Positions 1,326 to 37,843 of a stretch of 64,000 nt of DNA are shown piece after piece. The translations under genes and the position numbers were made by a program. The first letter of the stretch is position 1, and every line of letters starts with the position of its first letter. This stretch comes from an uncultured Bdellovibrionales bacterium (GTDB lineage Bacteria > Bdellovibrionota_C > UBA2361 > JBGSMV01), in contig CAZVWV010000002.1 in NCBI GenBank assembly GCA_964631745.1, positions 999 to 64,998 of the forward strand. The letters run 5' to 3'. Under the pieces are notes generated by a model. It had not been told where the DNA came from, did not search any database, and saw nothing but the letters and a program-made list of their open reading frames with translations.

Positions 1326-2921
1326 TTACGAAGTTTGCCCATTAATTATTCCGGGCGCGACATAGGGCCTTAACTTATAAACCTCCGCACGGTCAAACTC
1401 ACCTTCAAAAGTGGCAACACGCTCGTAGCGGTTACTTATGAGATCCTTCACGTATTCTAAGTGCGGCAAATGTTTGAAATCCATCTGCTTCATCGGTGGT
1501 CCCAGTGGATGCCCTACATAAGAGTTGCTAGCAGGTCCAATAAATTCCGGATTACGGTCGCGCATGGTCTCATAATACACAAATATTATCGGCGCAGTGT
1601 CGGTCAGATAATTTTTAAGCAGCACAGACATTTGAGGGTCAATCCCTTGATCTTCAAGTTGATTAGATTCGTAATTGGCCCCCAAAGCCGAGTAGAGTCC
1701 CATGTCAGGAAAAGAAGTGCGGCGTTCACTATACAAATAGATGCTTGGGGCTGGTCCCCAAACGAGAACTTCTTCGCCGAAGTCGGAATTTTTCCGCACT
1801 ACCTCAGCCGCGTTTCGCATGACTAGATCGTCCACCGGCAAGGTCCACCTGCCCGCGCCAATTCCAACACAGATCGGGAATAGCATGTAGCTGCCGCAAA
1901 GGGCGAAGAGTAACCCTTTCAGGTAACGAAACGAAATGGCGCACGCTAATAACCCAGTACTCAGGACAACAGCGGGCTGAAGCACCAAAAGATAATGAAT
2001 ATAGTAGCGTCCGCCAAGCACTGAGTAGATAAGCCCTAACACAGTTACTGATAAGTAAATCACTCGGTAAGGCTTTGGAACGGCACGAACTGCGAGGCAA
2101 ATTAGGAAGCCGATTCCAATCAGCGCAGCTGCCATAGGCTCCGCATCAACTCCCTTTTTTAAAAACTCGAGAATTGAGAATGGAACACCCTTATTACGCA
2201 TCGATAATGGAAAAATCAGGGCATGCTGAACGCAGCTCCAAAGTGCGCCGTGTGCGTAGAGCCACAGCCCGGCTAAGCTCGGCACGAGAGCCACGAAAAC
2301 CATCGCGGTGGCAACGGCACGCTTCCGATTAAGCCAGCTTGAATGGCAGAGTGGTAAGAACATCATCGACCCATACAGAATAAGCCGTTGGTCCATCACG
2401 GCCATAATTCCAAGCAAGAAACCCGCTCCTGCCATCATCCTAGATGATTGCAATCGCCAAGCTCGCGCTAAACTCACAAGAAGCAACCATATTAGCGGCA
2501 ACGCCTGGCTTTGAAGCTCAAAAATAAATCCTACCCATCCATACAGCCAACCGATAGTTACTGCCACCGTCGCTAACAAGACGCGAACGTTTGGCAAACC
2601 TAATTCTTTGGCCAGCATAAATGCTAGAAGCGCTGTGATGCATATATAACTGGCACTCAAACACCAGACCGCGTCCGGCGAATTTAAGAACATCAGCGGA
2701 AAAACATATCCCATGAAATGGTGGGTCACGTCATCGACGTAAGGAATACGCCCGCTCTTAACTACCAGAGCGTGATAAATCATCTCTGTGATGTCGTAAG
2801 AGAGATAAGAATGGTTACGAAAGCTAGAAATCCCAAGGAAGGCGGTCATGATAAGCAGAATGAATATTCCTACCGTGACCGCCCAGGCCTTTGTGCGCTG
2901 ACAACATAGCTCTAAAATCAT
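1326..2921 (-). CDS. Polytopic membrane glycosyltransferase, GT-C fold (ArnT/PMT, GT39/GT83-like)
   Basis: 531 aa. About 11-13 predicted TM helices followed by a ~170-aa soluble C-terminal domain. The first loop has a conserved acidic/aromatic motif (GRIPYVDDVTHHFMGY). The architecture is that of polyprenyl-P-sugar dependent GT-C enzymes. Confidence 0.6.
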   Translation of the reverse strand: MILELCCQRTKAWAVTVGIFILLIMTAFLGISSFRNHSYLSYDITEMIYHALVVKSGRIPYVDDVTHHFMGYVFPLMFLNSPDAVWCLSASYICITALLAFMLAKELGLPNVRVLLATVAVTIGWLYGWVGFIFELQSQALPLIWLLLVSLARAWRLQSSRMMAGAGFLLGIMAVMDQRLILYGSMMFLPLCHSSWLNRKRAVATAMVFVALVPSLAGLWLYAHGALWSCVQHALIFPLSMRNKGVPFSILEFLKKGVDAEPMAAALIGIGFLICLAVRAVPKPYRVIYLSVTVLGLIYSVLGGRYYIHYLLVLQPAVVLSTGLLACAISFRYLKGLLFALCGSYMLFPICVGIGAGRWTLPVDDLVMRNAAEVVRKNSDFGEEVLVWGPAPSIYLYSERRTSFPDMGLYSALGANYESNQLEDQGIDPQMSVLLKNYLTDTAPIIFVYYETMRDRNPEFIGPASNSYVGHPLGPPMKQMDFKHLPHLEYVKDLISNRYERVATFEGEFDRAEVYKLRPYVAPGIINGQTS

Positions 2922-3026
2922 TTAGAGTATTAAATCAAAATCTTATTGTGCTCGAAAGAGCAGTAAGTCATGGCACGATGGTAGAGCTGGCTGGAAATTG
3001 CGGGTTCGCTCCCGAGCCGATCGGAT

Positions 3027-5350: not shown

Positions 5351-5427
5351 CGTGTGTGGACTCCACCCCCATGTCTAAGGTGGCAGAGCTTACGCCAAGG
5401 CTTTGGGCGGCGGAGGGGATGCTAAAA
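5351..5427 (+). repeat. Third, 77-bp fragment of the same IS66 3' region (it encodes VDSTPMSKVAELTPRLWAAE), in direct orientation to the right copy
   Basis: 5353..5427 matches 18506..18580 with 8 substitutions. It lies 190 bp from the oppositely oriented left remnant. Confidence 0.7.
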
Positions 5428-5466
5428 ACCTGCAAGAGCAATTTCAAAATTCTAGCTTCGCTTGAC

Positions 5467-6912
5467 TTAGTCCTTACCAACGGCGTTCTTTCGAATCCAT
5501 AATTGAACGCGCCGGTTATTTGATTTTATTAGTGAGAAATTACTATTAAGATACCGCTGAATATCCAGACCCTCTCTAGTCATGCGCTCATTGAGCGCCA
5601 AGAATCTTTCATGATTTTTTGGATCGATTACGATTACCTTGGCAACATCAAGAATACCGGGCATCGCCAAAGCAGAGACAGATTCATAAAACCCACAGCC
5701 AACTCCCATGGTGGTCAAAATTGGGTCTCTAAGCTTCTTACTAAGAAAGCAAAGCGAAGGGTCCGCAAAAACTAACGCCGAGGATTCGTGTGGGATATTG
5801 TCATCTAGATCTTTTGCCAAGAACCTTTGTTGATCTCTCGGTTGCCATTTCTGGAACTGGAAAGAAAGAGAAGTTACACAAATTGGATAGATCACGAGAA
5901 TACTAAACATCACAGCAAAATAGATTAGCTTGAGGCTATTTCTTTTTAGAGAGCTCTGCATGAGTTGCCAGATACCGGTAAAGGCAATCAACTTTACGAA
6001 TGGCGCGGCTAATATTATATAGTGAGGATAGGTACGGAAATAGAGGGGCAGCAGCGACGCAATCAGTGCAACAAACGCAGCCACTAAAATTTCAAACACG
6101 CATCTTGGCATTGGCAAAGCTACCATCCACAGCAAAGGGACGATGACAGGCGCAAGTAACAGGGTAAGTCGAGCCAATATTTTCCAGTCAAAAGAGAACC
6201 CGGTATAGTGCCCACCCGACAGCGTATGCAATAAGTCGACAGGCGATACACCACCGATAATATATAAGGCCGAGAAACAAAGAATAATGGGGATTGTGTA
6301 TCCGATTATAAAAATGAGTATTCGTTTAATTCTAGTTTCAATATTGAATGAGTTACGCAAAGTTAATAACAGCAAACAGGGAACAATAAATAATCCAAAC
6401 TGCTTGTAAAGAAACGCGAGACCGCTGCAATACCCTGAGAAAAAGACACCTTGAATGGGGTAACGAACGAGCAAGTAGAACGAAAATAAACTCAGTAGAG
6501 CCACAAACGGTTCGAGGACGATGTAAGTACCTTCGTAGTAGAACGTCATAAATAGAAGAGCCAGGGCGCCAAGGGTACTCAAGTTGGGGTCTTTGGTAAT
6601 TATCCTTAGGAGCTTATAAAGTATCCACGCTGTAATAAGCTGAACTACGACTAACATCGATAGGTAGATGGAATAATCAGCTTCTCGATTACTCACCCAG
6701 GCAATAACAGCAAAAGTAAATATTCCGAAAGGTGTGTATCCACAACTAAAATCCCTATAAAGGACCAATCCGTTGGATACATAATTCGCGGCACGCAAGT
6801 AGGCACCCGCATCTGGGTTGATTGGAGCAAACTCAATAATCGAACCCGCTGCTAATGCAAAGATGCAACTTAGTACAATATTTAGAAAAACGATGATTCT
6901 TCTGGGCGACAT
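5467..6912 (-). CDS. Polytopic membrane protein, probable GT-C-fold glycosyltransferase paralog
   Basis: 481 aa with at least 11 TM helices. The first-loop motif GLVLYRDFSCGYTPFG resembles that of the 1326..2921 protein, and there is a C-terminal soluble domain. It directly abuts the GT2 gene with a 0-nt gap. Confidence 0.5.
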   Translation of the reverse strand: MSPRRIIVFLNIVLSCIFALAAGSIIEFAPINPDAGAYLRAANYVSNGLVLYRDFSCGYTPFGIFTFAVIAWVSNREADYSIYLSMLVVVQLITAWILYKLLRIITKDPNLSTLGALALLFMTFYYEGTYIVLEPFVALLSLFSFYLLVRYPIQGVFFSGYCSGLAFLYKQFGLFIVPCLLLLTLRNSFNIETRIKRILIFIIGYTIPIILCFSALYIIGGVSPVDLLHTLSGGHYTGFSFDWKILARLTLLLAPVIVPLLWMVALPMPRCVFEILVAAFVALIASLLPLYFRTYPHYIILAAPFVKLIAFTGIWQLMQSSLKRNSLKLIYFAVMFSILVIYPICVTSLSFQFQKWQPRDQQRFLAKDLDDNIPHESSALVFADPSLCFLSKKLRDPILTTMGVGCGFYESVSALAMPGILDVAKVIVIDPKNHERFLALNERMTREGLDIQRYLNSNFSLIKSNNRRVQLWIRKNAVGKD

Positions 6913-31329: not shown

Positions 31330-33315
31330 ATGATTTCAGAGGAAGAAAAGAGCCTTATCAGCAAGGAAGAGGAAATTCTTAAAACGACGATTGATTCTTT
31401 GGCTTCGCAACAAAAGCACGGGTTTGGGCGGCTAGGAGCGGAGAATATACGTGCTCGAACGTTGACGGCTGAGCTAGTGCTCACGAGACGGGCTGAGGAC
31501 AAGCAGCTTTTGGCGTCGGACGAAGCAGTTTCACATGCCTTAATTGGAAAGAAGAAAGAGGAGCTTAAGAACATCGACCTGCTTCTAAAAAACCCGTATT
31601 TCGCGCGTTTTGAGGTGCAAGAGATACCGTCCCGGGGCGGTAGTAGTGTTGGCGAGGCGCGAAAGATTGAGTACAAGCTCGGATTTGTGGCCAATCCGGA
31701 CTGCCGCATCATGGATTGGCGCAAGGCGCCTATCTCAAAGCTTTATTACGAGTATAAGGAAGGTGACGAATATTTTGAGGAGATCCAGGGGCGAGAGCGT
31801 GAGGGCACTATAACGTTAAGGCATGCGCTGGAGATCTCGGCCGGTGCGTTGACCAAAGTTAGTGGCGCCAAGGGAACCTTCGTTAAGAAGGGCGAGGTTT
31901 GGGAGAAACGCGGCGAGGCTGGCGGCGATGAACATCAGAGCGGCACTCTGCCACATATCCTTAGCCTTATTACCCCCGAGCAGTTCAAAACCATTTCGGA
32001 AGAATCAACCATTCCGTTATTGATTCAGGGCGTAGCGGGCTCGGGCAAGACCACCGTGGCTCTGCATCGCTTGGCGTGGTTGCTGCATGAGGAAAACTCT
32101 GCCCTGCTTTCGTCTGAGTGTTTGGTGTTGGTGTTAAGTCAAACATTGAAGCGATACATCACAGGCTTGTTGCCTGCGGTTGGCGCGCCTGAAGTAAAGA
32201 TTCAAACCTTTGCCGAGTGGGCGGCGGAAACAATTTCGCATTTTATGCCTGCATTCTGCGGTGAAGATGGAAGGCTACAAGTGCTTAATATTGAGCCTCC
32301 GCTTGGCGTGCAACGCGTTAAGACCAGCATGGCGCTCCTAAGGATGCTTGAGAGCGAGCGTGACATTGCGGATCCTTACGACCTCTTAATTAGATGCTTG
32401 TCAAATTATCGCCAATTAATTGAATTGGATGAAACCAAGCTTTTAGATCGCGAGGTGATCGATGCTGCCCTAAGCCGCACCATCAGCAATCGGGAGCAGG
32501 CAACTCTCGAAGCGTGCGATCTGGCGTTTTTCATGCGTGCGCTTGAGCTAAGGGAGAAACAGATATTTCTTCCTGACAAAAAAACTGGGCATCTTGGGCA
32601 TTTAGTGGCAGACGAAGTTCAGGACATGAGCGCGCTTGAGCTTGCTTGTATTTTCGGGGGAGTCAAAAAATCCGGAAGTGTGACCTTGGTGGGTGACACC
32701 TCTCAGGCCCTCTCCGGAAAGCAGTTTGTTGGCTGGGAGAAACTGCGAAGCTATTGGGGGCTTAAGGATTCACTTTCCAGATTTATCACCTTGGATGTTA
32801 GTCACCGCTCAACGCAACAGATCATGCGCTTTGCCAACTACGTGCAAGGCAATCAGTCCAAGGCACAAGGCAGGGAGGGTCGCCCGCCGATTCTCTTCAA
32901 ATGCGCAGGTCATCAAGCAGCCTTAAGTGCCGCCATGAATTGGTTGAACGAAGCCATGAAACGGTATCCAAACGCCCTCACTTGTGTAATTTGCGGGACT
33001 TCCCAACAGGCCAAGGAGTTGCATGGGCTCTTGGAACCAACCTTCGGTGCGGCGTTGAGAATCGGCCAGACCGAGGACTTTAGCTTTGAAGAAGGCATTG
33101 TGATTGCGCCACTACAGGTGGTGCGGGGCTTAGAGTTTGTAAACGTGCTGATTTGGGAACCGGATTCAAAGTTCTTCCCGGCCGATGAGCACGGGCGGAA
33201 TTTATTTTACACCGCAGCCACCAGGGCCTCGCAGAATTTGTGTATGGTGGCGAGTAAGGCTTTGAGCGCACTAATGCCAAGAGAGGAGAGTCGCTTGATG
33301 CGGGTGGTGGCGTGA
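31330..33315 (+). CDS. helD: HelD-like (helicase IV class) UvrD-family helicase that would associate with RNA polymerase
   Basis: The N-terminal domain motif RIMDWRKAPISKLYYEYKEGDEY matches B. subtilis HelD ([23 protein letters not shown]). Walker A LLIQGVAGSGKTTVALHRLAWLL and a C-terminal UvrD-like 2A domain. Confidence 0.7.
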   Translation: MISEEEKSLISKEEEILKTTIDSLASQQKHGFGRLGAENIRARTLTAELVLTRRAEDKQLLASDEAVSHALIGKKKEELKNIDLLLKNPYFARFEVQEIPSRGGSSVGEARKIEYKLGFVANPDCRIMDWRKAPISKLYYEYKEGDEYFEEIQGREREGTITLRHALEISAGALTKVSGAKGTFVKKGEVWEKRGEAGGDEHQSGTLPHILSLITPEQFKTISEESTIPLLIQGVAGSGKTTVALHRLAWLLHEENSALLSSECLVLVLSQTLKRYITGLLPAVGAPEVKIQTFAEWAAETISHFMPAFCGEDGRLQVLNIEPPLGVQRVKTSMALLRMLESERDIADPYDLLIRCLSNYRQLIELDETKLLDREVIDAALSRTISNREQATLEACDLAFFMRALELREKQIFLPDKKTGHLGHLVADEVQDMSALELACIFGGVKKSGSVTLVGDTSQALSGKQFVGWEKLRSYWGLKDSLSRFITLDVSHRSTQQIMRFANYVQGNQSKAQGREGRPPILFKCAGHQAALSAAMNWLNEAMKRYPNALTCVICGTSQQAKELHGLLEPTFGAALRIGQTEDFSFEEGIVIAPLQVVRGLEFVNVLIWEPDSKFFPADEHGRNLFYTAATRASQNLCMVASKALSALMPREESRLMRVVA

Positions 33316-33372: not shown

Positions 33373-33789
33373 CTACAGGCCACAATACTTACCAATTTGC
33401 AGCGCGAAATCCCTAAAAACACACATTTCAGTCGTTATTTTTTCGAAAACCCTGCCCCATTCAATAGTCGCGTATCGATGCACTAACAAATTCCTAAACC
33501 CTACCGCTTTCGAAAGTTTCTCAGCCAGCGATTTTTCTATTATTCCCTTTCCGCCAAGCTCCAAGAATAGGCTTCCTGCCGACAAACCACCGAGATCATC
33601 AAGGTCTGAGGCAAGATGCGCAGCTATGTCGATACAGTTCTGTACCGCGCGCTCTAGGTTTACCGAAATGATGTCTTGGATATCAAGATCCACGAAAAGT
33701 CGGTCAGCCGACTCTGGCATCTTACTCTCAATTCGCGCCACGCAATTTCTTAGATTTTCTAACTTTTGTGCAACTAACTTTCTATCCAT
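33373..33789 (-). CDS. hepT: HepT-type HEPN toxin (DUF86)
   Basis: 138 aa. The R-x4-H HEPN motif RNLLVHRY. Overlaps the upstream MntA gene by 8 nt (ATGAATAA). Confidence 0.8.
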   Translation of the reverse strand: MDRKLVAQKLENLRNCVARIESKMPESADRLFVDLDIQDIISVNLERAVQNCIDIAAHLASDLDDLGGLSAGSLFLELGGKGIIEKSLAEKLSKAVGFRNLLVHRYATIEWGRVFEKITTEMCVFRDFALQIGKYCGL

Positions 33790-34192
33790 GAATAAACCTT
33801 TCGCGACGCGCTTTAAGTATCGACTCCCACAACGGAATGTAGTCTAGTCCTTCCATCAAACACCGGGAGATAAGATTACCATACAACTCAGAATTTCGAT
33901 TAATAAGCGTTACCCTGCAAGAGACGATCTGCTGCAGCAAGACTCCGGATGCTGCCCGAAGATCAATGAGATCGATTTCTTTATTGGTTTTTTGAGATAA
34001 GCGCTGCGCCAAGTTAAGACGTTCATCCATGGTGAGCGGATGTTTCATTGCCACTGCTATATCGATATCACTATGCGACGTGGCGCCCCCATTTGCATAC
34101 GACCCGAAGCAGATCGCCAGTTGAAGATTGGGGATCTCCGTTAGAGTGTTTTTGATTGTTTCCAACAGACTCGACAGTATTTTCTTGGGCAT
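33782..34192 (-). CDS. mntA: MntA-type minimal nucleotidyltransferase antitoxin
   Basis: The Pol-beta NTase motif GSYANGGATSHSDIDIAV (GS...SDxD). Confidence 0.8.
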   Translation of the reverse strand: MPKKILSSLLETIKNTLTEIPNLQLAICFGSYANGGATSHSDIDIAVAMKHPLTMDERLNLAQRLSQKTNKEIDLIDLRAASGVLLQQIVSCRVTLINRNSELYGNLISRCLMEGLDYIPLWESILKARRERFIHG

Positions 34193-34335
34193 AACTTCAG
34201 CCGAACTTAAAATTGGTACGATATCAGAGCATTATATACTACTCTAAAAGAGAGAGGAAGCTTCGCGCGCGGAAGCTCATGTACAAAAATCTCTCGATTT
34301 TCGCTCAGAGACCATGCGCAATTTTTCAGCTGCTG

Positions 34336-35109
34336 TTACGCCAATATCGGGCAGGCGCCACGGATTGAGCCATAATGCGCTTTATCTTTACTGCCGGGGG
34401 TGTGGTTCACTTCGCCCTTCTTGTTGATATATAGGCAGCCCAGCTGAGTTGGTTTGAGCTGTTTTACCATGGCGTGCGCCTGGTCTAGTGCTTTGATCCA
34501 ACGCAGCTTAATCTGCTTTGGATCAACCTCCACACGCAAGGTCTCCTGAGCTAACAGGTCGGGGGTAATCCTGGCATTTCTAGCGATCATTTCTAGAATT
34601 AGTTCCGGCGTAAAGCCCGGATCCTTTCCGCAAGCTGCCCAGCAACACGCTCCAAGATGCAGGAGCGTATCGTGAATTGAAAGTATGTCGATTACGTCAC
34701 GAACCTCGGTGCGCCCCGCCAGGGCGAGGCACTTGTTAATGGCGGCATCTATCTCATGCAGCCGGTAGCCTAGGTCAGGGTCAGGTATAATGGGGAAGAA
34801 ACGAAAGGCAGAGTCGCTTGTCCATTCAAGCTTCACTCCGTCGTTAGTATCCTTAACAAAGGCTCTGACAAAGTTGGGTGTTTCAATCAGTACTTCAACT
34901 TTAAATCCATTACCTTTTAGGGTGTTTATATCGGCAATGGCGCTTAATGTTACGCTCGCAGCAGGATCATGAAAGAGATCGATATCTCTGGAAAACCGCG
35001 GCGAATCCGGAGATCTATTTATTACGGTTGCTCCGGCGACATAGCTTTCCGGATTTCGATTTACCGCAAGCAGCGAGAGAACCTTTCGTTGGAATGGTGT
35101 TAAGGGCAT
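34336..35109 (-). CDS. AbiEii/AbiGii-family nucleotidyltransferase toxin-like protein (DUF1814)
   Basis: VAGATVINRSPDSPRFSRDIDLFHD matches the family signature GGTAL...R.SEDlDF. 257 aa. Translationally coupled to the upstream small ORF by a 10-nt overlap. Confidence 0.6.
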   Translation of the reverse strand: MPLTPFQRKVLSLLAVNRNPESYVAGATVINRSPDSPRFSRDIDLFHDPAASVTLSAIADINTLKGNGFKVEVLIETPNFVRAFVKDTNDGVKLEWTSDSAFRFFPIIPDPDLGYRLHEIDAAINKCLALAGRTEVRDVIDILSIHDTLLHLGACCWAACGKDPGFTPELILEMIARNARITPDLLAQETLRVEVDPKQIKLRWIKALDQAHAMVKQLKPTQLGCLYINKKGEVNHTPGSKDKAHYGSIRGACPILA

Positions 35110-35495
35110 AGTTTCGATGCCTCCATATAACCGATGCGGCCGCCATAAGTTTTCAGGCCCTTTATAATTTGCGGTAAGTCAGTCGCGGTAATAATTAAGT
35201 CCCGTTTCATGTGCCAGAAACATTGCTCATAGTACTTTTCAAAAAGCTGTTGGGCCCGCTCCAGAACCGAATCCGTCTCTTTAGGACTGGCCTCACTAGT
35301 CGTCATAGCAGCCACGAAGCGCCGCAGCACTTCATTAATTTTGCGCTGATACCCAGGGCCTGAGCCCTTGAACCAGTCCACAATTTCGCGATCAAGCTTT
35401 ATAAATACCGGAACCTTAGGGGACTTGTCCTGTTTAAAGATGTCACCGGCAGCCTGGGCCAACTTTAGGTTGGCTTGGGAAATTGATCTTGGCAT
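35100..35495 (-). CDS. Putative antitoxin: a BrnA-like (DUF4415) segment fused to a ~55-aa C-terminal extension
   Basis: KVPVFIKLDREIVDWFKGSGPGYQRKINEVLRRFV resembles the BrnA core (I.LDedVLeWFk...GyQt.iN..LR.y). It is upstream of, and overlaps, the AbiEii-like gene. Confidence 0.45.
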   Translation of the reverse strand: MPRSISQANLKLAQAAGDIFKQDKSPKVPVFIKLDREIVDWFKGSGPGYQRKINEVLRRFVAAMTTSEASPKETDSVLERAQQLFEKYYEQCFWHMKRDLIITATDLPQIIKGLKTYGGRIGYMEASKLCP

Positions 35496-35519
35496 ATATA
35501 TGATTATATATATGATTCA
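35496..35519. promoter_or_regulatory. Perfect 2 x 12-bp direct repeat (ATATATATGATT)x2 abutting the start codon of the 35100..35495 gene. Candidate autoregulatory operator or UP element.
   Basis: Seen directly in the sequence at 35496..35507 and 35508..35519. Confidence 0.35.
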
Positions 35520-35628
35520 TATTTTGGGTCAAGCACGATTATGGGAGGCTACCTAGCCTGATATATCGGCATCGTTGTATGGCGAAACGCCGTTATTTGA
35601 CTAAGAATCATGTTGGTTTAGACCGGGA

Positions 35629-36846
35629 ATGAAAGGTGGTATGGCCCCGTTAGGGTGCCCTAAATCGATTATGATTTTAGACGAAGATCTATTAAAGCGC
35701 AGACGGGCACAGGGAAAAGCTCCTGACGGTGAGGATTTTGAACCGGAGCACATTGGCGCGATTCCTGAGGAGTCGGATGACCCATTCCGATCTTTTGACG
35801 CTTTCGGTCGAGCTGCAAAGCGTCTGTTCGAGGAGCTTGCAGGCAAAGCCCGTGACCCCAATTTAAATCCGAAATTTACTAAGTTTAATTCGGGCGAAAC
35901 TGAGCGAGCAGAAAGTACTTCGGATGCTGCTCGCACCGCTCCCGACGATAGAGTTGCGGAGGAGTATTTCTTTCTTGTCGGGATGGCCACGGGCGAAAGC
36001 GAGAAGCGTCCTCCTTATATTTTGCCGCCACTTAGGGGACCTGAGACGGACGCTGAACCCAGCATCACTCAGAGCGAGGATGAGGAGGATTTACGAAGAG
36101 CTCGTCTCAGCACTCGCGAGCCATTGCAGACAACGATCGAAGTCTCGGAGCAGCGTTTACCGCGACCTGATGAGGGCGCGGAAATTTTACAAGCAGATCG
36201 GTTTGGACAGATTACAGAGCATGCTGTTGATGACTCCCAGTTCCTACGGGCCTCCCTGTCCGCATCAGACGAACCTCGAATACCAGTAGGAAGGATCGTG
36301 CCGCTCTTTTTAGAAGCCGAAGGATCGATCTTAAAGCCCAATGTCGAGCGCGGCCGCGCCCGCATATTAAGTCAGGCTTCGTTGCCCGTAGATGACCATG
36401 TCTTGGGCGCACTGGAACAGGCCCAGAGCTTATTGGCACAACTGCCGCCGATTCCAAACCTCGCAGATATTCCAGCTAACCCCGCGGGGATAGCGCAGAC
36501 GACAGGGCACCCACCGGGCAATCTCCAATCAGGTAATGACTGGAGTGAAGATTTTGGGAGCGTTGATTTTAACTCCCCATCACAACCCGCCCAGGAATTA
36601 GAGGCAGCGCGCGCCGCCATGAAATTAGTAGCTGCCTCATCCTTGGCCACGGCCCATGCCGCACGGGGTCCACTCGAAGATCATTCTAGGCGACTCGCCA
36701 TAGTCGGAGCCGCTTTGGCCGCCGACCCGGAAGAGCTTGACTCTGCGCCCTTTTTAGACGGCGTGAGACGGGCACAGGCTGCTGTGGCGGAAAGGGTCAG
36801 ACTGCTGAATCTGAACGAGCACGAGCTTGCTCTCAGAGCGGCTTAG
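35629..36846 (+). CDS. Hypothetical acidic, Ala/Glu/Asp/Pro-rich low-complexity protein (405 aa) in a locally GC-rich patch
   Basis: A long ORF with no recognisable domain. The region has higher GC than its surroundings, which explains the several antisense ORFs in the track. Confidence 0.4.
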   Translation: MKGGMAPLGCPKSIMILDEDLLKRRRAQGKAPDGEDFEPEHIGAIPEESDDPFRSFDAFGRAAKRLFEELAGKARDPNLNPKFTKFNSGETERAESTSDAARTAPDDRVAEEYFFLVGMATGESEKRPPYILPPLRGPETDAEPSITQSEDEEDLRRARLSTREPLQTTIEVSEQRLPRPDEGAEILQADRFGQITEHAVDDSQFLRASLSASDEPRIPVGRIVPLFLEAEGSILKPNVERGRARILSQASLPVDDHVLGALEQAQSLLAQLPPIPNLADIPANPAGIAQTTGHPPGNLQSGNDWSEDFGSVDFNSPSQPAQELEAARAAMKLVAASSLATAHAARGPLEDHSRRLAIVGAALAADPEELDSAPFLDGVRRAQAAVAERVRLLNLNEHELALRAA

Positions 36847-37227: not shown

Positions 37228-37509
37228 CTAAGCCGCCTTGGATGTAACCACTCGATAGTCGTACCCTAAAGACACTAGAATATTGAAGATCACATCGAAA
37301 GTGATATTAGCAGTTCCAATTCCTGACTCAATCTGAGCAATTCTTGCCTGACTTACCCCAAGTTTTCTTGCGACCATGACTTGCGAAATCTTCTTGGCTT
37401 TTCGAATCTTTTTAATCATGCCGATTAGACGCTGTTTCTCCCTAATCTCGGATATATCGGCACCAAGCGACTTTGCTAATTGTTCCACTGTAACTTCTTT
37501 CCAAGGCAT
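37228..37509 (-). CDS. HTH-XRE family antitoxin (HigA-like)
   Basis: 93 aa. KISQVMVARKLGVSQARIAQIESG HTH. Immediately downstream (2-nt gap) of the Gp49-like toxin gene. Confidence 0.7.
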   Translation of the reverse strand: MPWKEVTVEQLAKSLGADISEIREKQRLIGMIKKIRKAKKISQVMVARKLGVSQARIAQIESGIGTANITFDVIFNILVSLGYDYRVVTSKAA

Positions 37510-37510
37510 A

Positions 37511-37843
37511 CTATATCTCTCGAATTCGTTTTAAAATTAATTTCATTTCTTTCTGTGGGATCTCCTGCGTCTTTTTCCGAAAAGCATGGATCAAATAAAT
37601 TGCCTCTGCACGCTTGATAAAATAAATAACTCGAACTTGCCCACCCTTGTCCCCGAATCGTAGCTCATGCAGTCCACGCGCTATATTTGAAAGGTTACGA
37701 CTCAATGGCATACTAAGATTTTGCCCAGATTCAAGAAGAGCGACAGCGTCTGCGACTTCAAGTTGTGTGGCCGCTGGCAACTCCAATAGAAATTCTTCAA
37801 CTGGACTTCGTCCACTTGATTTCTTGAAATATCGAACCTTCAC
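37511..37843 (-). CDS. RelE/ParE-superfamily toxin, Gp49/HigB-like (DUF891)
   Basis: 110 aa. GLHELRFGDKGGQVRVIYFIKRAEAIYLIHAFRKKTQEIPQKE matches the Gp49-like family core (l.ELR......yRvlYf......iyLLhaF.KKtqk.P..e). Confidence 0.7.
   Translation of the reverse strand: MKVRYFKKSSGRSPVEEFLLELPAATQLEVADAVALLESGQNLSMPLSRNLSNIARGLHELRFGDKGGQVRVIYFIKRAEAIYLIHAFRKKTQEIPQKEMKLILKRIREI

Follow-up and report, generated by a model that had tools for sequence, protein, structure and literature searches.

The window, i.e. the whole 64,000-nucleotide (nt) stretch of DNA from an uncultured Bdellovibrionales bacterium that was analysed here, harbors on its minus strand two overlapping genes, A and T, which are the subject of this study. 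Gene A (35100..35495) is an open reading frame (ORF) of 131 amino acids (aa) encoding a two-domain, antitoxin-like protein, and gene T (34336..35109) is an ORF of 257 aa encoding a predicted toxin, which is assigned below to the divergent nucleotidyltransferases with a DUF1814/AbiEii/MenT fold. An earlier note, made from the sequence without database searches, had described the pair as an AbiEii-like nucleotidyltransferase with a BrnA-like partner. Indeed, both ORFs were located at these coordinates, and the hidden Markov model searches that the note had proposed placed both proteins above the gathering scores of the respective Pfam families, i.e. PF14384 for A (43.6 bits) and PF08843 for T (23.4 bits).

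The sequence ATGCCCTTAA, read from the start codon of T to the stop codon of A (35100..35109, minus strand), represents an overlap of 10 nt, because of which translation of T is likely to be coupled to that of A. A GGAGG Shine-Dalgarno sequence of T is located within the 3' end of gene A (35120..35124, minus strand), 10 nt 5' of the T ATG. The overlap of the 131-aa upstream gene, which the earlier note had described as translationally coupled, with T turned out to be conserved, since the stop codon of the partner gene lies exactly 10 nt after the ATG or GTG of the T homologue in 70 of 81 partner genes, with the consensus T-ATG-CC-N-N-T-R-A (ATGCCNNTRA).

Domain organisation of A and conservation of its C-terminal domain

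The resemblance of A to the BrnA antitoxin is real, with 43.6 bits against PF14384 (BrnA_antitoxin) at a gathering score of 26.1, but it covers residues 20-61 and therefore about one third of the protein, not the two-thirds that had been supposed. In the profile of 68 positions, the matching residues correspond to positions 28-68, the ribbon-helix-helix (RHH) half of BrnA, and profile positions 1-27, the N-terminal non-RHH part, are unmatched in A. The C-terminal part of BrnA has been described as an RHH domain controlling brnTA transcription (PMC11980606; also PMC5086665). Since the match is limited to this half, A shares with BrnA the DNA-binding head and not the toxin-binding core, and the view of the N-terminal part as a BrnA antitoxin core is not supported. 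Based on the PF14384 match, a structural model and a conserved pattern, we delimited a BrnA-type RHH module, which is predicted to bind DNA, at residues 20-66 of A (35298..35438, minus strand). It comprises a predicted strand at about residues 28-34 and helices at residues 36-44 and 49-65, and its conserved pattern among relatives of A reads hxhxh...WF+..GYQ..I..VL. PDB sequence searches with A and profile searches with the RHH segment returned chance or spurious repeat matches only, and an NCBIfam search with A gave no match.

In the model of A, the RHH module is followed by a linker of low confidence (residues 66-71) and then by a confidently modelled helical domain (pLDDT, i.e. predicted local distance difference test, of about 90) with helices at residues 72-87, 89-92, 104-117 and 119-129. 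Conservation and model together define this 'CFW...GL..GGR.G' domain, the proposed toxin-neutralising part, as residues 72-131 (35103..35282, minus strand), in which A81, C92, F93, W94, G113, L114, G118, G119 and G122 are invariant or nearly so. A first homology search with A had already retrieved, next to about 20 full-length relatives, four proteins of 83-107 aa that match its C-terminal half only.

The distribution of this domain was followed in a scan in which each GTDB species was represented by one genome. At least 519 loci with a T homologue were revealed, and the best 79 of them came from about ten phyla. The groups covered include Bdellovibrionota, Gemmatimonadota, Acidobacteriota, Verrucomicrobiota/Lentisphaerota, Latescibacterota, Spirochaetia and others, and the closest relative of T among these 79 loci, from an uncultured Bdellovibrionales bacterium, is 77% identical. 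Of 80 distinct loci inspected, 79 have a plus-strand ORF directly 5' of the T homologue that encodes the same C-terminal core, A-x3-F-x6-CFW ... GL-x3-GGR-x-G ... A-x2-LC, and the sole exception has just 48 nt of DNA 5' of T. The pairing is thus far beyond chance. The domain also stands alone in proteins of 60-90 aa, which are encoded directly 5' of T homologues with the same overlap. From this we conclude that the C-terminal 55 or so residues of A are the conserved cognate domain of this toxin clade; they had been taken for a mere extension on a recruited BrnA core, but it is this domain that is kept, and the RHH head is found in about a quarter of the loci.

When the partner family was used as a profile, it matched 3,872 clusters at the 90% identity level; at 50% identity, there were 403 matching clusters, 211 of which had an E-value of at most 1e-10. 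The members are nearly all 60-170 aa long and, if a source gives them a name, are almost always called "hypothetical protein". None of the retrieved members carries a precomputed Pfam domain, a Pfam scan found no match to the C-terminal domain in 42 members and likewise none in 150 diverse ones, and no NCBIfam match to the family was found. Relatives in the PDB could be detected neither by sequence in a profile search nor by fold. No description of the domain was found in the searchable literature, which treats AbiEii and BrnA, and likewise DUF1814 and RHH proteins, separately.

Some members of the family call for a separate remark. The near-invariant Cys130 of A (35106-35108) was considered as a functional residue and rejected, because the T start codon that overlaps it leaves this codon no alternative: partners ending in 'LC[RPQ]*' are read xxA TGC Cxx TRA, where the T frame reads ATG CCx, so that the start of T dictates the penultimate Cys. 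Loci without the overlap end otherwise, e.g. in ..ELDLK or ..ELGS, and have lost this residue. In two proteins, P0383 (249 aa) and P0363 (192 aa), the C-terminal domain is joined in frame to a remainder of T, from which the N-terminal approximately 90 residues and with them motifs I and II (see below) are missing. Judging from their sequences, they resemble degenerate modules with a toxin inactivated by deletion, and decayed in-frame fusions of this kind are typical of toxin-antitoxin loci. The top match of the search among cluster representatives, P0266 (4429 aa), was discarded as a repeat artefact, since it aligns to profile positions 61-80 only, in 19 repeated stretches. At one latescibacterotal locus (L051), the partner gene is present twice within 3 kb (2732-3010 and 5418-5627), which may reflect a duplicated module.

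Fold and active-site motifs of T

T matches PF08843 (AbiEii) with 23.4 bits at a gathering score of 22.5 (E 6.5e-5, profile positions 16-166 of 238), and a precomputed match to this family is present in about half of its close homologues. PDB searches with the single sequence and with a T-family profile returned chance or spurious repeat matches only, and an assignment from Pfam, PADLOC, NCBIfam and PDB sequence searches alone would be shaky. Therefore, the assignment builds on fold and motifs. An AlphaFold2 monomer model built from 118 homologues reached a pLDDT of 92.4 and a predicted template modelling (TM) score of 0.88. When this model was compared to the PDB with Foldseek, the top match was JHP933 (4o8s/4ok0; E 1e-7), followed by MenT4 (6y56; E 1.4e-6, TMq 0.55), with TM scores of about 0.5 for the JHP933 and MenT4 matches; generic pol-beta nucleotidyltransferases appeared at E > 1e-4 only.

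The motifs of DUF1814 proteins have been defined as hG[G/S]..R...DhD, K..A...R and +DxxD (Dy et al. 2014, PMC3985639), and T agrees with all four motif definitions, including the Arg four residues before the first Asp. Conservation was counted by column over the 118 homologues, and the motifs were matched as sequence patterns. Motif I is represented by A25-G26-[G/A]27, with G26 kept in 118/118 homologues, and motif II by R38-x-S40-x-D42-I-D44 (R38 in 118/118, S40 in 117/118, D42 in 115/118 and D44 in 116/118). Motif III reads K126-C-L-A129-L-A-G-R133 and motif IV R137-D138-V-I-D141; K126 and R133 of the former and R137, D138 and D141 of the latter are present in every homologue (118/118). Ser40 occupies the phosphoacceptor position, which corresponds to T65 of AbiEii (R63-x-T65-x-D67-x-D69) and to S78 of MenT3 (R76-x-S78-K79-D80). 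Because the fold matches and the four conserved motifs agree, we conclude that T, as judged from model and sequence, is a divergent DUF1814 nucleotidyltransferase whose active-site residues are intact. This bears out the assignment made in the earlier note. The upstream protein is not an AbiEi; its C-terminal domain gave no Pfam or fold match.

Relatives of T are numerous (about 2,950 at 90% clustering). T homologues of 34-36% identity, annotated as 'AbiEii/AbiGii toxin family', occur in Rhizobium sp. BG4 pRPC2 (L084, 2160-3316) and on a Devosia neptuniae plasmid (L085, 2162-3301). Both are preceded by a gene for a 112-aa hypothetical protein (..DLVRVEVLVP..), which is possibly RHH-like, has no detectable relation to A (hhalign probability 0.1) and may be yet another type of partner.

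N-terminal heads and their upstream palindromes

The partners of T homologues fall into three types, which carry either a BrnA-type RHH head, a basic head with the motif 'YLAxIGRKGGxKSRRxLS' (hereafter IGRKGG head) or no head at all. About 20 of the 80 loci have a partner with an RHH head; among the cluster representatives, PF14384 is matched by 15 of 150. The IGRKGG head occurs at about half of the loci, and headless partners are proteins of 60-70 aa. In a rough distance tree of T (neighbour-joining, midpoint root), all partners of the RHH type, including that of the window, are found in one clade, a second clade is made up mainly of the IGRKGG type, and the headless forms are basal or scattered. 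A survey of neighbourhoods had been suggested in the earlier note; among the T homologues covered here, BrnA-type heads are confined to a single T clade.

The type of head corresponds to the type of palindrome upstream of the partner gene. Two boxes of (TA)3 or longer within positions -70 to +6, in the form GTATATAC-N5-GTATATAC or similar, were present at 15 of 18 loci of the RHH type, plus the window, and at none of the 29 loci of the IGRKGG type and none of the 14 headless loci, with a background of 0.95% in random windows from the same loci. The columns of the boxes are invariant in an alignment of 15 promoters of the RHH type, which range from AT-rich Bdellovibrionota to GC-rich Gemmatimonadaceae. 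Loci of the IGRKGG type have a palindrome of their own, TAAGCnGCTTA (CATAAGCGGCTTATG), which was found at 20 of 29 of these loci (L014, L015, L023, L029, L030, L037, L038, L046, L054, L061 and others) and at none of the other types, with a background of 0.8%. It is located 10-40 nt 5' of the partner gene, after a TTGC element resembling a -35 region. This distribution suggests that the basic, KGG-like motif is a second, so far undescribed DNA-binding head. One member gave a weak match to the Pfam family KGG (E 0.006).

At the window locus, a scan for sigma-70-like promoters identified a -35 hexamer TTGACC (35527..35532) and a -10 hexamer TATAAT (35503..35508) on the minus strand, separated by 18 nt (35532..35503); with 11 of 12 matches, this was the top site in the scanned region. 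The sequence TTGAC(A/G/T) is found at the same distance at loci L005, L008, L010, L011 and L012, and L005, L008, L010 and L011 also share the geometry of a TATAAT followed after 7 nt by the ATG. Because the -10 hexamer ends 7 nt before the ATG of A and no Shine-Dalgarno sequence is present 5' of A, the operon mRNA is probably leaderless.

A repeat search and the alignment of the loci revealed a candidate operator of two TA-rich palindromic boxes at 35493..35517 (unstranded), whose TATATA boxes overlap both the -10 hexamer and the start codon of A. Within it, a perfect tandem repeat of 12 nt (ATATATATGATT x2) spans 35494-35517, and an inverted repeat of 9 nt, likewise perfect, lies at 35493-35501 / 35506-35514. 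The two-box pattern occurs once only in the 64-kb window, and none would be expected from shuffled sequences. Boxes and RHH head together are what would be expected of an autorepressor head and its operator.

Interpretation, related systems and genomic context

Taken together, we interpret the locus as a bicistronic, autoregulated module of the toxin-antitoxin type, in which the C-terminal domain of A would neutralise the DUF1814 toxin T and the RHH head would repress the operon, and we assign this reading a probability of roughly 70%. T would most likely add nucleotides to the 3' ends of transfer RNA (tRNA) and thereby block translation, by analogy with MenT1, MenT3 and AbiEii; nucleotide addition to tRNA 3' ends by DUF1814 toxins has been described (PMC7450476, PMC10435456, PMC11375011, bioRxiv 10.64898/2026.01.19.700257). 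The helical C-terminal domain of about 55 aa is proposed to recognise and neutralise T in one of two ways. One is plain sequestration, as in type II systems. The other is an induced autophosphorylation of Ser40 in the R38-x-S40-x-D42-x-D44 loop, as in type VII systems, and T has the corresponding sequence feature, i.e. a Ser two residues before the DxD (S40). The antitoxins of MenA1/MenT1, MenA3/MenT3 and AbiEi/AbiEii are structurally unrelated, and all of them induce autophosphorylation of a Ser or Thr next to the DxD (PMC11375011, bioRxiv 10.64898/2026.01.19.700257). Since T and its homologues keep the Ser (117/118), we regard induced autophosphorylation as a serious candidate by analogy, with sequestration as the alternative. 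The RHH module of A, in turn, would dimerise, bind the two TATATA boxes over the -10 hexamer and the start codon and thus repress the operon.

Several observations weigh against this interpretation. The PF08843 score of T is marginal (23.4 vs 22.5 bits), the AbiEii models of PADLOC reach just E ~0.02, an NCBIfam search with T gave no match, and the distance of motif IV from motif III is about four residues shorter than in AbiEii. For A, the β-strand of the RHH module is not called in the monomer model, the N-terminal half of which is of moderate confidence only, and a contact of the C-terminal domain with T is proposed from gene linkage. Moreover, the DUF1814 superfamily also holds non-toxins such as JHP933 and ANT(2'')-Ia (bioRxiv 10.64898/2026.01.19.700257), the phage collection yielded no T homologue, and plasmids carry only distant ones (about 30-36% identical), so that a role in mobility or defence is conjectural.

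The last three points, together with the fact that many homologous loci sit among housekeeping genes, would also fit a non-toxic nucleotidyltransferase, e.g. one that modifies a small molecule or antibiotic or acts in signalling, with A as its dedicated regulator or regulatory subunit. However, the locus has the classical layout of a type II operon, in which a small, antitoxin-like gene comes first, overlaps and is coupled to the second gene, and encodes a DNA-binding RHH head plus a partner domain, with a palindromic candidate operator over the promoter. T also keeps the full set of toxin-type catalytic motifs including the Ser at the phosphoacceptor position, further toxin-antitoxin pairs cluster around the window locus, the phyletic spread is patchy, and decayed, toxin-deleted copies exist. 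On this evidence, we consider a non-toxic function unlikely.

A second alternative takes A for essentially a BrnA antitoxin whose target has changed from BrnT to a DUF1814 toxin, in which case the BrnA-like part would neutralise T and the C-terminal 55 aa would be accessory. A passes the PF14384 gathering threshold, and BrnA occurs otherwise almost only with BrnT (in TASmania, BrnA-type antitoxins are paired with BrnT in 99.88% of cases; PMC6504116), so that one might see in the pairing an exchange of partners. A re-targeted BrnA is nevertheless very improbable, because the match is confined to the RHH DNA-binding half (profile positions 28-68), about three quarters of the partners of the T family are without a BrnA-like part and all keep the C-terminal domain, which also exists as stand-alone proteins of 60-90 aa directly 5' of T homologues with the same overlap, and because the BrnA-like head co-varies with the DNA motif and not with the toxin as a whole. 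A reversed polarity, with the small protein as toxin and the nucleotidyltransferase as an antitoxin modifying it, would follow the logic of the type VII HEPN/MNT pair that adjoins T, and the small protein has strikingly invariant residues (CFW, GGRxG), but such a polarity is hardly tenable, since T has the DUF1814 and not the MNT fold with toxins or toxin-like proteins as nearest structural relatives, an autoregulatory DNA-binding head on a toxin would be unusual, the upstream place of the small gene fits an antitoxin, and the decayed P0383 and P0363 delete motifs I/II of the nucleotidyltransferase and keep the small domain, as expected if the nucleotidyltransferase is the harmful partner.

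The antitoxin-type module proposed here can be compared with several known systems. The antitoxins known for DUF1814 toxins belong to COG5340 (AbiEi, MenA3, MenA4 and, by prediction, RlegA and SanaA), to COG4861 (MenA2) or are MazE-like (MenA1) (PMC11375011, bioRxiv 10.64898/2026.01.19.700257). AbiE, MenA3/MenT3 and MenA4/MenT4 share with the present locus the toxin fold, motifs I-IV and the Ser/Thr two residues before the DxD, and in AbiE, MenA3 and MenA4 the antitoxin gene comes first as well. AbiE-type antitoxins are described as an N-terminal DNA-binding head plus a C-terminal antitoxicity domain, with self-repression via repeats (PMC7319586; bioRxiv 10.64898/2026.01.19.700257). In contrast to the strict AbiE type, which is marked by a COG5340/AbiEi partner of about 200-300 aa with a winged helix-turn-helix, A has 131 aa, an RHH head and an unrelated C-terminal domain, and T, for its part, shares just about 15% identity with MenT4 and JHP933, its PF08843 score being only slightly above the threshold. 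MenA1/MenT1 (Rv0078B/Rv0078A) likewise combines a DUF1814 toxin with a short, upstream-encoded partner unrelated to AbiEi, and a small helical element of MenA1 suffices to bind MenT1 and to induce its autophosphorylation (PMC11375011). No similarity of MenA1 (PDB 8AN5) to the C-terminal domain of A was found in PDB sequence or fold searches.

The RHH module of A is homologous to that of BrnA from BrnT/BrnA of Brucella abortus (PF14384, 43.6 bits), and since BrnA is an autorepressor (PMC11980606, PMC5086665), it would be expected to act likewise. Unlike brnTA, the locus has no BrnT, and a Pfam scan of the neighbouring ORFs found no BrnT-like or RelE-fold ORF flanking A; the gene order is antitoxin then toxin instead of toxin then antitoxin, A lacks the BrnT-binding part of BrnA, and its RHH lies in the N-terminal half and not at the C-terminus and is followed by an unrelated domain. 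Modular type II antitoxins in general, with RHH heads of the RelB/ParD/CopG type, resemble A in that an N-terminal RHH is joined to a C-terminal toxin-binding segment, in the tandem palindromic operators over the promoter and in the exchange of DNA-binding heads among related systems, but the tail of A folds into a helical domain of about 55 aa and belongs to an unannotated family, and the predicted toxin is a nucleotidyltransferase and not an RNase or gyrase poison. By homology, then, A is a member of the BrnA family only through the shared RHH head and a member of no known DUF1814 antitoxin family. The toxin fold, the operon logic and the antitoxin modularity are familiar, whereas the antitoxin domain, its breadth and the match between head and operator appear to be undescribed. 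We lean somewhat towards regarding the 'CFW...GL..GGR.G' domain as a new cognate antitoxin class for DUF1814/MenT-like toxins, which would extend over about ten phyla with at least two heads, each with its own operator.

Among the toxins of phage defence and persistence, DUF1814 nucleotidyltransferases such as AbiEii and MenT1-4 form a major family, and a current question is how structurally unrelated antitoxins control them, for which induced autophosphorylation is the proposed answer. To this the locus adds a widespread, unannotated candidate antitoxin domain tied to a toxin clade that keeps a Ser at the phosphoacceptor position, and the smallest stand-alone partners of about 60-70 aa could serve as a convenient test case for the model. 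Should our interpretation hold, the family would represent a natural series for studying the swapping of regulatory modules in antitoxins and the universality of induced autophosphorylation among DUF1814 toxins. The correspondence of head type and operator is testable and could be of use in engineering orthogonal repressors. For automated toxin-antitoxin annotation it is relevant that a Pfam "BrnA_antitoxin" match can mean just a shared RHH head.

With respect to the genomic context, a weak terminator-like hairpin with a poor T-tract is located 58 nt past the stop codon of T (34258..34278, minus strand); with one site against 1.5 expected in shuffled sequence, it is not significant alone. The GC content shows no anomaly and thus no sign of recent horizontal acquisition. 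The A/T module is flanked by two further pairs. Directly 3' of T lies a type VII HEPN/MNT pair (33373..34192, minus strand), which consists of an MNT nucleotidyltransferase (33782-34192, minus strand; Polbeta/NTP_transf_2) and a HepT RNase (33373-33789, minus strand; identified by Pfam scan), whose genes overlap by 8 nt. On the other side, a Gp49/HigB-like toxin gene (37511-37843) followed by an HTH_3 antitoxin gene (37228-37509), both on the minus strand, form another toxin-antitoxin pair. Because this is the third pair within about 4.5 kb, the region represents a small toxin-antitoxin cluster.

Between gene A and this last pair, an ORF of 405 aa on the plus strand (35629-36846) diverges from gene A. 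It has no Pfam match and is a possible gene only; the acidic product has a high content of Ala and Pro. The minus-strand ORFs that overlap it, several in number, are likewise without Pfam matches. A UvrD-like helicase of 661 aa is encoded on the plus strand at 31330-33315, the first approximately 210 residues of which have no Pfam match. It is one of the housekeeping genes found farther out, which also include the nuo operon and genes for a GDSL lipase, an M24 peptidase and a carboxyltransferase.

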